From: Patescibacteria group bacterium
Lineage (GTDB): Bacteria > Patescibacteriota > Gracilibacteria > UBA1369 > PNNO01
DNA length: 54,701 bases
Direction: 5' to 3'
NCBI GenBank assembly: GCA_042568575.1
Contig: JBHPIO010000010.1
Coordinates: 1-54,701, forward strand
Numbering within the stretch: position 1 is the stretch's first letter; each line of letters begins with the position of its first letter. Under the pieces are notes generated by a model, which was given only the letters and a program-made list of their open reading frames with translations, was not told the DNA's origin and did no database searches. A program made the translations under genes and the position numbers. Positions 36,309 to 53,137 of the stretch are shown here, piece after piece.

Positions 36309-36569
36309 TGTTGTTGACAATTTAGGGTTTTTATAGTATAATTAGCTCCTTTTACAATTCAAGTCTTTTTTGTCGTCAATTGGTATAAATTGCAGGTAAG
36401 GAAAGGCTTGAATTGTCAACTAGTGCTCATTGACATGTTGGCAACACTTTAGTTTCTCCATTGGAAGCCGTCCCTTCCGATGAGAAACAGCTTTTTTACA
36501 TACGAAACCGAACTCGAAAACACGCCTCGCAGACAGCGAGGCGCACGGATACAAAACAAGAGGTGACTC

Positions 36570-39020
36570 ATGAAACGGATCAGCATTAGCCTTCTGGCTA
36601 CGATCGCTTTCTTGCTCTGCAGCAATACTGCTCAGAGTGCAATCAATGAATGTTCTTCGAAGCTTTGCCCCGTTGTTTACAAGAACAGCGGGCACGTCGT
36701 GTTCTACGATCTGTCTGATGCAGAGAAAGGCTCTGTGCCGTTCGCAAATGGCGATGAAGCCTATGTTTGTGCCAAAGACGGACTCGTGGTGGTCAATGAA
36801 AACTTGACCGATACCGCCCTGCTGTACAAGGTAGCAAACGGTACTTTCCAAATCGCTGCCATCGGCGCCGACAGCTCTAATACTACGGTTTTCAATGGAC
36901 ATGCGTGGATCGGTGGATGGACCAGCTATATTTACAAAGCAAATCCTGACACCGGTGCTGTAAATCAGATCACCATAGGCGGCGCCTTCGGCCCCTGGAG
37001 CATCGCTTCCAACGACAATTTCGCGTTCACTATGAACGCAGCTGTGGCCTCCATCACCGAGATTGACGTCACAGACACGCTGGATGGCCCTTACGCCATG
37101 ACGGGCTACCTGCCAGCGGATCAATTCGAAGGACTCATCTGGGACGAGGACGATCAGGTCCTCTACGCGACCATCGCAAACAATGTCGCGAAAATCACCC
37201 CGGGGTCCCCGAACTACACCGTGACGGACTACTTGGCCAGCGACCTGGCCGAGAAACCCACGCTGATCACCTCCGACGCAACCCACATCGTGGTGGAAGC
37301 GGTTAATAACATCTACATTATCCCTAAGGGGGCTACTCCAGTAGCACTTGGAAACGTTATAACCAGACCGGTGAGCAGCGTTCGCGACGTGGCCATTTGC
37401 GGCAACTACGTGTACGCAGCTTCGGGTGCTGGCGTCGAAAAGTTCAACAAGTCCGGTACCTCGCTCGGCATGCTCACCACGGACAACTCGTGGGGCATCG
37501 CCTGCGTGAAGCCCACGTGTGGCAACAACGTCGTGGACATCGGCGAGCAGTGTGACTTCGGTGACACGACTCCCGGTGACGGATGTGACGCTGCCTGTCA
37601 GATCGAGACCGGCCCGGTGTGCGGCAACAGTGCCGTGGAGACTGGTGAGGACTGCGACGATGGTCCCGCCAACTCGAACACCACCCCGGACGCCTGCCGC
37701 GAAGACTGCTCCAACCCCGGCTGTGGTGACGACGTCACCGACTCCGGCGAGCAGTGCGACGACGGCACGTCCAACTCGGATACCCAACCCGACGCCTGTC
37801 GTACCGACTGCAGCGACCCCATCTGTGGGGACGCAGTCATCGACACGGGTGAAGAGTGTGACGGCATCAACTTGGGCACCGCAACTTGCGTGAGCCTGGG
37901 GTATGCAAGTGGCACTCTGAGCTGCAACAGCTGCGGCTTCAATACCTCACAATGTGTCCCCCCGGTCACTTGTGGAAACGGCGTCCCGGACCCCGGGGAA
38001 GAGTGCGACAACGGCGCGGCCAACTCGAATACCGAGCCCGATGCCTGCCGCACCAACTGCACCAACCCAACCTGTGGCGACAACGTCACCGACACGGGTG
38101 AGCAGTGTGACGACAACAATCTCGTAGCAGGAGACGGCTGCGACGAGAACTGTAACATCGAATCCCTTGACTGCGGAAACGATGAGATAGATACGGATGA
38201 GGACTGCGACGGTTCCAACCTCGACGGCCAGACTTGCGTCGGCCTCGGGTTCACCGGCGGAGACCTCACCTGCGCAAACCACTGCCGCTTCGATACAAGC
38301 GCCTGTACCGAAGCCCCGGTTTGCGATCCGGATGGAAGAGTGAAGATCCTGGATGAGCTTCCCACAGATTTCACTTTCGACCAGTATTCTCAGCTGAAGC
38401 ACGAGGGAGCGGTTTCACAATACCCCAATACCGAGTGCACTCTGAGTTGTGTGGAGATCGCGGGAAAAGTCGGCGTTCGAGTCGAAACGAGCAGCCGCTG
38501 CATTTTCCGCGTCGACAATATCCACAACCAAACAGGCTGGGCTGTCCTGGAGCTCTGGCAGATCGAAGAGGGTGTGCCCGCTGTGTGGATCATTGATCCG
38601 TACAACACCGAGAACTGGACTCCCTACAGTGGGGCATGGGTCTTCGACCACGAAGGCGAACCCATCTCGTTTAGTTTTGGCCAAGCAGCGTTGCTGCATG
38701 GCGGCACTTTGGGAACCGCCCCGTACGGCGAAATTACCAATGTGGGAACTGAGGACGAAAAAATGATCATCGTCATGATAGAATCGGCGATGTGGTTCGC
38801 CTATGGCGACAAAGAGATCATTCTTTCGGCCGACGGCAACAACCAGGGTGTGTTCTACACGAATCGCCCCCTGGACTCCCCCGTCTGGAACACAGGCGGA
38901 GGTGGAGGCAAGGGCTGCCTCGAGAATATGGGTTGTTCTGCCGGTGGGAACTCGGGCGGCTTGCCGCTCGCGTTCATGTTCATCATCATCACTTTCCTCT
39001 GGCGCAAAAGGGGGAAGTAA
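36570..39020 (+). CDS. GC-rich surface protein: beta-propeller-like region, myxococcal Cys-rich (DUF4215-type) repeats and MYXO-CTERM-like tail
   Basis: Signal peptide; about seven CG(N/D)....GE.CDDG-type repeats; GGGGGKGC...GCSAGG-TM-RKRGK; SD GAGGTGA; promoter TTGACA(36314)-N17-TATAAT. Confidence 0.88.
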   Translation: MKRISISLLATIAFLLCSNTAQSAINECSSKLCPVVYKNSGHVVFYDLSDAEKGSVPFANGDEAYVCAKDGLVVVNENLTDTALLYKVANGTFQIAAIGADSSNTTVFNGHAWIGGWTSYIYKANPDTGAVNQITIGGAFGPWSIASNDNFAFTMNAAVASITEIDVTDTLDGPYAMTGYLPADQFEGLIWDEDDQVLYATIANNVAKITPGSPNYTVTDYLASDLAEKPTLITSDATHIVVEAVNNIYIIPKGATPVALGNVITRPVSSVRDVAICGNYVYAASGAGVEKFNKSGTSLGMLTTDNSWGIACVKPTCGNNVVDIGEQCDFGDTTPGDGCDAACQIETGPVCGNSAVETGEDCDDGPANSNTTPDACREDCSNPGCGDDVTDSGEQCDDGTSNSDTQPDACRTDCSDPICGDAVIDTGEECDGINLGTATCVSLGYASGTLSCNSCGFNTSQCVPPVTCGNGVPDPGEECDNGAANSNTEPDACRTNCTNPTCGDNVTDTGEQCDDNNLVAGDGCDENCNIESLDCGNDEIDTDEDCDGSNLDGQTCVGLGFTGGDLTCANHCRFDTSACTEAPVCDPDGRVKILDELPTDFTFDQYSQLKHEGAVSQYPNTECTLSCVEIAGKVGVRVETSSRCIFRVDNIHNQTGWAVLELWQIEEGVPAVWIIDPYNTENWTPYSGAWVFDHEGEPISFSFGQAALLHGGTLGTAPYGEITNVGTEDEKMIIVMIESAMWFAYGDKEIILSADGNNQGVFYTNRPLDSPVWNTGGGGGKGCLENMGCSAGGNSGGLPLAFMFIIITFLWRKRGK

Positions 39021-39145
39021 ATATACTGCTGGATCTGTTATCGGCTACTCACTTGAAGAAAGGAGTATCTGACGTAGCCAATCCTTATCCATAAAGCAGC
39101 GTGTCCGTAGTGATTGAGAATTCATTTCATTACGGAACACTCCTC

Positions 39146-39192
39146 AAACCCGACTTGAAGTTCTTTTATTAGAATGGACGGTCGGGTTTTTT
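39146..39192 (+). terminator. Intrinsic terminator
   Basis: aaacccgac...gtcgggttttt. Confidence 0.65.
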
Positions 39193-52050: not shown

Positions 52051-52232
52051 TATTATGAGTTTATCAATTAGAGACGAGCATAAAGCGAGTCTCGCGCGAG
52101 CGAAAACTTATCGCGAGCGGAGTGTGAGCGGAGCGAACTCCTTACCGAAAAAATGCCATCTTAGTGTATACGAAAAGTCCTCAAGAGGCAATTGATGCAA
52201 CGTGAGATTTGTGGTGTTGTTGTTTACTAAAT

Positions 52233-52763
52233 TTAGAAGATATTTACAGGTATTTCGCGTACCTCATCTCCTACACGAACTTTGATAACCGCTTGGGTGG
52301 GAAGAGCTCCGTCTGGAAGAGTTTCAGTTACTTCAGCACCTTCAATAATGTGTGTCCCTCCTTCAAAATCAAAAGGCACAGCTGGATATGTTGCGTCTTC
52401 AGTTTCAAGTGCTATTGTACCGTTAAAAGACCAATCTTCTGGCATTGTATAAAGTATCTTCCAAGATCCTGTTCCAAGATCTGCATATCCAAAACAGGAA
52501 GCAAATGGATAAGTTCTAGAATCTTCAGGCACAGTATCTGGAACTCCACCATCTAAACCTGACGTATCTGTATTTTGTTGTTGATTATCACATCCAAGAG
52601 CAGTTCCACCCAAAATCATTGTTGCTGCAACCGCTATTGGCGCACCAACTTTTTTAGCAAATCTCATCAACTTACCATCAGTCAATTCACAGCTTTCTGG
52701 AGCCGTTCCGGCAAGTATCTTGTCTAGTTCTTCATCACCTAATTTTCTCCCTTTTTCGTCCAT
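52233..52763 (-). CDS. Lipoprotein-like protein with an N-terminal extension
   Basis: About 32 charged residues, then MRFAKK-hydrophobic-ALGC. Confidence 0.65.
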   Translation of the reverse strand: MDEKGRKLGDEELDKILAGTAPESCELTDGKLMRFAKKVGAPIAVAATMILGGTALGCDNQQQNTDTSGLDGGVPDTVPEDSRTYPFASCFGYADLGTGSWKILYTMPEDWSFNGTIALETEDATYPAVPFDFEGGTHIIEGAEVTETLPDGALPTQAVIKVRVGDEVREIPVNIF

Positions 52764-53137
52764 AGCCTAGAAACATTTATGGTATGTTAAATTATTTATC
52801 TGTCTGGCCAAAAAGTCAAGCGAATTTGCTAAAAAAAGCCAAAACATATGGGGTTGATTTATTTCGAAAAATACGTATAATACATGTCTGCAACTTCATT
52901 TTTGAAGTGCTCATTAACAGACAGACCACTAGTAAAGTGTTAAGAACCACTGTGTTCCTACATGAGGTGCAATGCCTTTACCACATAACCCACGGTGGAA
53001 TTAATACTTTACTAGACTTAAAGAGAGAGTACGTGACCTCCAATCGGATGCCACTCCGGGTATCTAGGTTGATTTATTACCCCGCTACGCCCTTTTGACG
53101 GCCGGGGAAACGGTCTTCTTGGGACTTTGGAAGGAGC

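Follow-up and report, generated by a model that had tools for sequence, protein, structure and literature searches.

Ribosomal RNA-type boxA elements in the leaders of GC-rich, mostly surface-protein genes of a Patescibacteria genome suggest a separate expression route

The window considered here is a 54,701-nucleotide contig (C2) in the assembly of a Patescibacteria group bacterium, termed G000, which comprises 1,203,139 bases in 31 contigs and is 82% complete. Its EF-P is most similar (50% identity) to that of MAGs labeled Candidatus Peribacteria, which places it among the small-genome candidate-phyla bacteria near Peribacteria/Peregrinibacteria. The window carries five GC-rich genes (starting at 29115, 36570, 41572, 42851 on the minus strand, and 53138), each of which encodes a signal peptide or lipobox and has a GGAGG-type Shine-Dalgarno sequence just 5' of its ATG. 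An earlier note on this DNA had described boxA-like antitermination motifs in the leaders of these genes. The five words that it listed are present base by base, they lie on the sense strand between a predicted sigma-70-like promoter and the start codon, and the hairpin that it placed at 36354-36416 was confirmed by folding. Three of the words, at 36424, 43479 (minus strand), and 52908, are, as judged from their sequence, genuine boxA elements and not chance matches. They are of one kind with the boxA of rRNA leaders; such words are enriched in the leaders of GC-rich genes, biased to the sense strand, and conserved in relatives, and the genome holds genes for the corresponding factors. The relatives used for comparison include G001, G004, G005, G006, and G010.

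Antitermination in rrn operons involves a boxB-boxA-boxC leader and a complex of NusA, NusB, S10 (NusE), NusG, SuhB, and S4; its classical target is Rho. In G000, the 16S and 23S genes are unlinked, and each has its own promoter and leader. Words kindred to those of the window, a resemblance on which the earlier note had depended, stand in both: a hairpin precedes CGTTCTTTAACAT in the 16S leader (word cgTTCTTTAACAt), and in the 23S leader TGATCCTTGAAAA comes after a hairpin that ends in a T-run (word tGATCCTTGAAAa). The 16S leaders of G000 and 17 relatives and the 23S leaders of G000 and 7 family relatives were read. The 16S sites center on TGTTCTTTAACAT, and a "CATT" variant (TGTTCATTGAAAA, TGCTCATTGAAAA, CGCTCATTGAAAA, CGATCATTGATAA) is found upstream of 23S in five of eight family genomes; CATT words in the mRNA leaders of the window thus represent a bona fide rRNA-leader form in this family. 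The 23S boxA of G010 lies ~136 nt ahead of the 23S 5' end. In all eight genomes (G000, C1:181714-181790, L002; 7 relatives, L193-L200), a hairpin GAGTGTGT...ACACAC and 8-9 T stand directly 5' of the 23S boxA, an arrangement that is terminator-like. One scoring matrix was trained on 17 16S and 7 23S leader sites of relatives (the 16S+23S matrix; training sites score 11.7-18.9 bits), and a second on the 16S leader sites of relatives only.

Three of the four window words that the earlier note had put forward as boxA-like, namely those at 36424, 43479 (minus strand), and 52908, score inside the rRNA range (Table 1). The fourth, at 41465, reaches only 2.5 bits with the 16S-only matrix, and its 5.0 bits with the 16S+23S matrix fall below every rRNA site; an ortholog search for gene 41572 returned SLH-type repeat matches only. 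The fifth word, CATTTATTGAAT at 29045-29056, which the note had itself called weak, is present but is no boxA site, since the best match in the 29115 leader (7.5 bits) is the -35 of the promoter. That leader lacks boxA in both G000 and G001, and the weak word is lost in the G001 ortholog. The three boxA sites of the window lie 133-230 nt upstream of the start codon with strong hairpins in between, and the three window leaders that were folded are strongly structured (z-scores -5.22, -4.63, and -3.31).

Table 1. Coordinates of the GC-rich genes of the window and of the features in their leaders (bits are those of the 16S+23S matrix).
Feature	Position	Strand	Evidence or remark
Promoter of fifth GC-rich gene	28988..29016	+	promoter prediction
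GC-rich lipoprotein gene directly past tRNA-Trp; Shine-Dalgarno GGGAGGTG; leader without boxA	29115..29675	+	
Promoter TTGACA-17-TATAAT of 816-aa DUF4215 protein gene	36314..36342	+	12/12 consensus matches
Long 5' hairpin opening the leader, boxB-like position	36354..36416	+	fold, leader z-score -5.22
boxA TGCTCATTGACAT (TGCTCATTGACA at 36424-36435)	36424..36436	+	16.3 bits
Second leader hairpin GTTTCTC...GAGAAAC, then T6	36452..36497	+	fold; terminator-like in G000 only
GC-rich gene, secreted 816-aa DUF4215-repeat protein, 57% GC, GC3 0.70	36570..39020	+	Shine-Dalgarno GAGGTG 5' of ATG
Promoter TTGACA-16-TAACAT of 332-aa lipoprotein gene	41427..41454	+	promoter prediction
Weak boxA-like word TTGGTCTTTGAAG / TGGTCTTTGAAGT (TGGTCTTTGAA at 41465-41475)	41464..41476	+	5.0 bits; not established
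GC-rich lipoprotein gene, 332 aa, weak SLH match	41572..42570	+	signal peptide or lipobox
GC-rich lipoprotein gene, 168 aa	42851..43357	-	lipobox
boxA CGTTCTTTAAAAG (CGTTCTTTAAAA at 43479-43490)	43478..43490	-	13.1 bits; ~85 nt past -10; leader fold z -3.31
Promoter TTGACT-16-TATCAT, or TTGACT-17-TATACT one base over	43573..43600	-	promoter prediction
Promoter TTGATT-16-TATAAT of 231-aa lipoprotein gene	52854..52881	+	read from sequence; -35/-10 blocks kept in 10 orthologous leaders
Short hairpin ACTTCA-tttt-TGAAGT immediately 5' of boxA	52893..52908	+	read from sequence
boxA TGCTCATTAACAG (TGCTCATTAACA at 52908-52919)	52908..52920	+	13.7 bits
GC-rich lipoprotein gene, 231 aa, 55% GC	53138..53833	+	syntenic orthologs in 9/12 family genomes
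Shine-Dalgarno examples	29100-29114, 36556-36569, 43358-43372 (minus), 53125-53137		

Enrichment was assessed on sense-strand leaders of G000 (at most 350 nt of intergenic DNA), comprising those of 18 GC-rich, 13 mid-GC (0.46-0.52), and 531 ordinary genes. Leaders served as the unit because raw genome counts are swamped by coding sequence: a Hamming search against three 11-mers gave 178 genome-wide matches at one mismatch or fewer, 151 of them in open reading frames (ORFs; 105 antisense). The difference between high-GC and ordinary leaders anticipated in the earlier note was found with the rrn-trained matrix. At 12 bits or more, the 16S+23S matrix finds sites in 7/18 GC-rich, 4/13 mid-GC, and 4/531 ordinary leaders (Fisher 3e-9, GC-rich vs. 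ordinary), and at 10 bits or more in 9/18 GC-rich vs. 11/531 ordinary leaders; no antisense strand of the 18 GC-rich leaders scores, and shuffled leaders give far lower counts (a mean of 0.29 per 18 at 10 bits or more). The 16S-only matrix at 8 bits or more behaves alike, with sites in 9/18 GC-rich, 5/13 mid-GC, and 13/531 ordinary leaders (Fisher 1.7e-9), compared with a mean of 0.67 per 18 in shuffles and with 1/18 GC-rich and 24/531 ordinary leaders on the antisense strand. With the same matrix, 11 of the 252 ordinary leaders of at least 150 nt have a site, and outside the window the counts are 6/13 GC-rich vs. 12/505 ordinary leaders. These numbers depend on some choices in the GC-rich set: one ORF (C26:47966-48364, GC 0.54, no match) was left out without firm reason, and its inclusion gives 9/19 and 7/19; an antisense ORF within the thiolase gene and a spurious ORF within the 53138 leader were also dropped, and within GC-rich islands the strand or start was revised manually for four calls.

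The excess recurs in G006, a complete genome (1,374,545 bases, GC 35.5%) from the same family and a different genus, which was put through the identical pipeline without hand edits. Sites at 8 bits or more are present in 6/12 GC-rich vs. 28/629 ordinary leaders (1e-5) and in 7/13 mid-GC leaders; at 10 bits or more, the counts are 4/12 vs. 11/629 (9e-5), and the antisense strands of the 12 GC-rich leaders have none.

Conservation is best documented for the 53138 gene. Homologs are present in 9 of 12 family genomes, flanked by pheT in 9/9 and by a PBP gene in 8/9, which indicates that the locus is inherited vertically. Outside the genus the protein is 26-35% identical, compared with 55-93% for its neighbors, and every copy is enriched in GC (0.46-0.55 vs. 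0.34-0.41 in the flanks; GC3 0.42-0.65). All 10 orthologous leaders contain a YGCTCATTWAMA-like word 20-45 nt past the -10, mostly behind a hairpin. Seven of them score 6 bits or more with the 16S-only matrix, and the remaining three are CATT/TAAA variants. The three best 11-column blocks in an un-anchored MAFFT alignment of these 10 leaders (320 nt upstream) are the -10 (88/110), the boxA word (86/110), and the -35 (83/110). The short hairpin at 52893-52908 occurs in G001 in a compensated form (ACTCCA...TGGAGC). Upstream of the -35 of this gene (52800-52850), a block TATTGTCT..AAAAAG.CAAAAAAGTCAAG is also kept in most family genomes (orthologous loci L141-L149); it could be a regulator site or the promoter of the divergent gene.

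The leaders of DUF4215 lipoproteins (seven from five genomes: two from G000, one each from G001, G005, and G010, and two from G006) share one layout, in which the promoter is followed by a ~20-bp hairpin, 2-8 nt, and then GCTCATTGA[C/A/T]A. The word GCTCATTGACA, as at 36424, is also found upstream of DUF4215 genes in G005, G006, and G010. RNAalifold predicts 26 pairs for five of these leaders, with compensatory change in nine. The hairpin at the position of 36452-36497 is kept in the orthologous leaders, and the T-run is absent from them. The homologs of 42851 in G001 and G006 are likewise GC-rich (0.55 and 0.53), and the words in their leaders are degenerate. Across leaders, the distance from the -10 to boxA ranges from ~8 to 85 nt.

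Side observations in other transcription units concern the same word. In four relatives (G004, L156; G005, L155; G006:212781-216679; G010, L178), a 17-nt word, GCTCATTGAAAATCAGG, stands directly past the -10 of a large SLH-domain (S-layer-type) gene, and the G004 copy is identical to the boxA region in the 23S leader of the same genome. The incomplete G000 assembly yielded no counterpart carrying such a leader. A reverse-transcriptase gene (RVT_1, 416 aa; G000 C24:311-1960, L204; G006:514347-515960) has a non-coding leader of 330-344 nt, which in both genomes opens with TGTTCTTTGAAAT (16.6 bits) right past a TGnTATAAT promoter. A search for a template/variable repeat at this leader found none; the leader may be a retron-like or other reverse transcriptase-associated non-coding RNA under boxA control. 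Finally, CGGTCTTTAACAT (12.6 bits; C30:10376-10388, L203) lies 76 nt upstream of the called start of a RelA/SpoT-family (HD_4) gene and could either connect boxA with the control of growth rate or be fortuitous.

The genes concerned form a distinct compositional class. The contigs of G000 have a GC content of 34-42%, and gene GC is bimodal (greedy set of 1062 ORFs), with a median of 0.38, a 95th percentile of 0.455, and a tail at 0.52-0.62 in which GC3 is ~0.7. Scanning in 600-nt windows yields 24 islands of at least 52% GC genome-wide, one of which is the 16S gene. Outside the window, the class includes two further DUF4215 proteins, an OPT transporter, an M23 peptidase, a GT87 glycosyltransferase, an enoyl-CoA hydratase and Zn-dehydrogenase pair, and a FadB-like protein and thiolase pair. 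The rise in GC starts 40-120 nt upstream of the start codon and stops 40-80 nt past the stop codon, and the promoter, hairpin, and boxA portion of each leader is AT-rich. Since some members (53138) are old and syntenic, recent transfer alone cannot account for the GC-richness.

Other members are strain-specific. The hydratase at C4:19078, which is adjoined by a tRNA gene, has homologs in none of 30 relatives and groups in Atlas with 6-oxocyclohex-1-ene-1-carbonyl-CoA hydratases, which are commonest in Pseudomonadota; the C1:11953 gene has homologs in none of 12 family genomes. When the leader DNA of the C4 island was compared with five relatives, essentially only the tRNA part and ~90 nt beyond it were matched, and the part from promoter to boxA was not. 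Both this hydratase-like gene with its Zn-dehydrogenase (C4:19078-21470, L112) and a FadB-like dehydrogenase/hydratase with its thiolase (C31:24319-27611, L123) are strain-specific, GC-rich, and unusual for a candidate-phyla bacterium, and the enzymes look like parts of an acquired anaerobic benzoyl-CoA/beta-oxidation pathway.

The class also differs from the remaining genes in its Shine-Dalgarno usage. GGAGG, AGGAG, or GAGGT occurs 4-20 nt 5' of the start in 10 of 17 hand-checked GC-rich genes, compared with 2 of 583 ordinary genes having at least 40 nt of upstream intergenic DNA (5/955 at the longest-ORF start). The motif background is 1.9% of 15-mers genome-wide and 3.6% inside GC-rich ORFs. 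G006 shows a similar contrast (4/17 GC-rich vs. 9/1118 ordinary genes), and the 3' tail of the 16S rRNA retains CCTCC.

Regarding the factors that the earlier note had proposed to look for, NusB and S10 (NusE) are encoded in G000, and Rho was not found. NusA is present as well, together with an inositol-phosphatase (Inositol_P, SuhB-like) family gene that also occurs in 8 of 12 relatives. NusG is found in all 12 family relatives, with one PF02357 match per genome; hence no paralog of the RfaH/LoaP type is evident. From these factor genes, a complex based on NusB-S10 can form. Rho_RNA_bind (PF07497) has no match in any of the 31 genomes of the order (G000 and 30 relatives, 23 of them at least 90% complete), in a search whose control matched 9 of 14 known genomes. 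As Rho was not found, anti-Rho protection is unlikely, and the role of boxA here would differ from the E. coli textbook role.

For the boxA words of these messages, a role in high-output expression is favored with modest confidence, in which an rrn-type processive complex resistant to pauses and terminators would serve structured, GC-rich, Shine-Dalgarno-led messages. According to this proposal, boxA, at which NusB-S10 is predicted to load in the separate 16S and 23S leaders of the lineage, would find a second use close to the 5' end of long, structured mRNA leaders, in most cases right behind a hairpin. NusB-S10 would most likely be recruited by boxA in the nascent RNA and, in concert with NusA, NusG, and the SuhB-like protein, would turn RNA polymerase into a fast, pause-resistant, and terminator-resistant complex of the rrn type; both the binding to the leaders and the effect on elongation are predicted. 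The putative targets comprise roughly one half of the GC-rich genes with Shine-Dalgarno sequences, which encode surface lipoproteins and a number of foreign enzymes, and probably also the S-layer-type gene of the relatives and the reverse-transcriptase unit with its long non-coding leader. The complex would secure processive transcription through structured leaders and GC-rich gene bodies against pausing, hairpin-induced arrest, and intrinsic termination, and it would help the leader to fold and yield rRNA-like high output. Because Rho was not found in the order, we infer that such a complex would serve processivity and not anti-Rho action.

Several observations weigh against this proposal. 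In E. coli, boxA on suhB represses expression and does not promote it (PMC5725501). A site is present in only about half of the GC-rich leaders, and in the window the 29115 leader has none and the 41572 leader a weak word. Between 4 and 11 ordinary leaders score too, so that boxA is neither necessary for nor exclusive to the GC-rich class. NusG was not found in the 82%-complete assembly of G000. In the leaders, the search for a conserved terminator that the complex could override was negative: a simple terminator scan called no canonical terminator in them, and the hairpin with T6 at 36452-36497 was not called. Words ending in TTGACA also resemble a -35, which affects two strong matches (36424 and C4:18968). 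Both have a better promoter upstream of them and lack a matching -10, and without them the count at 12 bits or more is 5/18 vs. 4/531, as counted by hand from the match lists.

Other roles for the word were weighed. NusB-S10 might bind and act as a brake, as on E. coli suhB or lambda N, where the leader loops to the polymerase and ribosome access to the Shine-Dalgarno sequence falls; surface-protein synthesis would then be tied to the free Nus/S10 pool, i.e., to ribosome production and growth rate. In E. coli, boxA upstream of suhB represses translation even when shifted up to 100 nt from the Shine-Dalgarno sequence, and lambda nutL lies ~200 nt ahead of N (PMC5725501). The GC-rich genes, unlike the rest of the genome, do depend on Shine-Dalgarno sequences, and several sites (C5:3650, C12:21083, C23:30224, and C23:39226) are 25-57 nt from the start. 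We nevertheless regard a brake, the main alternative, as unlikely, given that in E. coli Rho-dependent termination completes the repression whereas the genomes searched here yielded no Rho, that the window sites are farther from the start with strong hairpins intervening, and that near-consensus promoters suggest a high output rather than a throttled one. That the word serves another partner appears quite unlikely; it would then be a signal for an RNase or for processing that pre-rRNA has as well, a target of a different RNA-binding protein, or, at the DNA level, an operator a short way past the start site. In favor of this, NusB-S10 binding is a prediction, the site is near the -10 in some leaders, and C1:11953 has a perfect 14-bp leader-trailer helix resembling an rRNA processing stem. 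Against another partner stand the variable distance from the -10, the strict strand bias, and the match to the one rRNA-leader element with a partner known from B. subtilis and E. coli (PMC13753749). Pairing between leader and trailer, moreover, is not general, as only 2 of 16 units have a perfect ungapped helix of at least 12 pairs (C1:11953, 14; C12:5905, 12), none of them in the window. RNAduplex comparisons of whole leaders with trailers were uninformative (rank of the own trailer 1 to 16 of 16, median ~9).

The words could also be functionless passengers, in promoter-leader pieces copied from rRNA leaders or traveling with mobile cassettes, or chance matches in AT-rich leaders. The strain-specific genes C4:19078 and C1:11953 still have native-looking AT-rich leaders, and the word ahead of C1:11953 is identical to the 23S boxA of G000 across 13 bases. 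This explanation is nonetheless very unlikely, as shuffles give means of 0.3-0.8 matches per 18 leaders vs. 9-11 observed, across genera the conservation of the block equals that of the core promoter where other leader parts diverge, and the excess recurs in G006. The suggestion of the earlier note that these messages are made without coupled translation, being translated elsewhere (e.g., in a host) or later, found no support and is highly improbable. In principle, ribosome coupling could be blocked once S10 and the C-terminal domain of NusG are both engaged in a Nus complex (PMC5725501). The messages, however, have Shine-Dalgarno sites complementary to the organism's own 16S tail (CCTCC) and encode bacterial signal peptides and lipoboxes; the class includes enzymes and transporters, and nothing points to RNA export.

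A broader proposal, which is tentative and on balance improbable, is that of a Rho-less family with two expression regimes. In it, AT-rich genes without Shine-Dalgarno sequences would be opposed to GC-rich genes on rRNA-like cassettes (consensus promoter, 5' hairpin, boxA, long structured leader, and strong Shine-Dalgarno sequence), the latter genes encoding surface lipoproteins, an S-layer-type protein, and captured foreign enzymes. GC-richness would be maintained by selection or biased conversion within a Nus-dependent, maybe ribosome-uncoupled route, and the cassettes would provide an entry gate for acquired high-GC genes, a boxA counterpart of RfaH. Its ground is that at least one member has been GC-rich at a fixed syntenic locus since the family ancestor, with the protein down to ~30% identity. 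Under such regimes, the GC-richness would not be un-ameliorated foreign DNA.

Further side observations were made on the transcripts of these loci. The 14-bp helix at C1 (C1:11939-11952 / C1:13877-13890, L108) joins the leader sequence TGTGGATGTCTAAA, 120 nt upstream of a 605-aa GC-rich ORF, with sequence right past the stop codon, and so encloses the gene like an rRNA processing stem; the 12-bp case is at C12:5905-6534. Rfam at gathering score over the whole window gave four tRNA matches only and no known leader family or riboswitch, and at E <= 0.01 on four further boxA-positive loci it gave no known RNA family in any leader. At 48995-49159 (minus strand), Rfam gives two adjoining tRNAs, whereas ARAGORN reports a single tRNA-Gly (anticodon ACC) whose anticodon-loop region is enlarged and misses the neighbor of 88 nt.

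Among known systems, the closest is the rrn leader itself. The core word, its place behind an early hairpin, the presence of the word in the organism's own 16S and 23S leaders, and the factor genes are alike; in contrast, the word is found here on protein-coding, Shine-Dalgarno-led messages, Rho is apparently lacking, and no boxC-like block is consistently present. Long leaders opening with a strong hairpin at surface-protein genes, in the relatives also at an SLH/S-layer-type gene, recall the 5' stem-loops that stabilize abundant envelope-protein messages (ompA, S-layer genes); to our knowledge, such stabilizers do not include boxA. Like the phage lambda nut site (boxA and a boxB hairpin, with N protein), which renders polymerase processive over foreign genes, the leaders carry a bipartite signal near the 5' end. 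Unlike in nut, boxA here comes after the hairpin, which is the order of rrn; the units lie on the chromosome and are partly vertically inherited, and no N-like protein was seen, although no search aimed at one was made.

The rrn complex also interferes with intrinsic termination, and B. subtilis NusB binds a GAUCUUUGAAA-type boxA (PMC13753749). Non-rRNA transcripts with boxA include suhB and other genes (PMC5725501), and CRISPR operons are mentioned (PMC13753749). In Gammaproteobacteria, boxA occurs at suhB, a ParE-like toxin gene, rpsJ, prsA, and CRISPR array leaders (Baniulyte et al., 2017; PMC5725501), where, as predicted here, a non-ribosomal unit is regulated through a NusB/S10 site that its mRNA leader or non-coding leader contains. 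That paper counts 0-7 putative sites in each genome, most of them no more than 50 nt from the start, and in the proven case boxA causes repression that leads to termination by Rho. G000, on the other hand, has ~11-16 leaders at rRNA-range scores in 1.2 Mb, mostly with the site 100-230 nt upstream, and tied to a compositional gene class. RfaH/ops, LoaP, and UpxY are specialized NusG paralogs for horizontally acquired and surface-structure operons (PMC5449661; PMC12691694). The cargo (surface structures and foreign genes) and the use of a leader signal to switch polymerase to a processive state are alike, the latter as proposed here; the signal, however, is an RNA boxA and not a DNA ops element, and the 12 family relatives have no NusG paralog.

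A search of the open-access literature found no account of boxA on mRNA leaders in candidate-phyla bacteria. New are the number of targets in a 1.2-Mb genome, the link to a compositional and Shine-Dalgarno class, the family-wide conservation, and the Rho-less background. NusB and boxA are conserved in Rho-lacking bacteria, and a family with boxA on at least a dozen mRNA leaders as well as on its rRNAs offers natural test substrates. The shared rRNA-type boxA on GC-rich, mostly surface-protein genes suggests a separate expression route. If this is true, it would reveal by what means uncultivated bacteria of ultra-small size express surface genes or genes of foreign composition, would account for an anti-Shine-Dalgarno tail that is retained despite the organism's own genes not using it, and would supply an annotation signal (promoter, hairpin, boxA, and Shine-Dalgarno sequence) for a distinct regulon.

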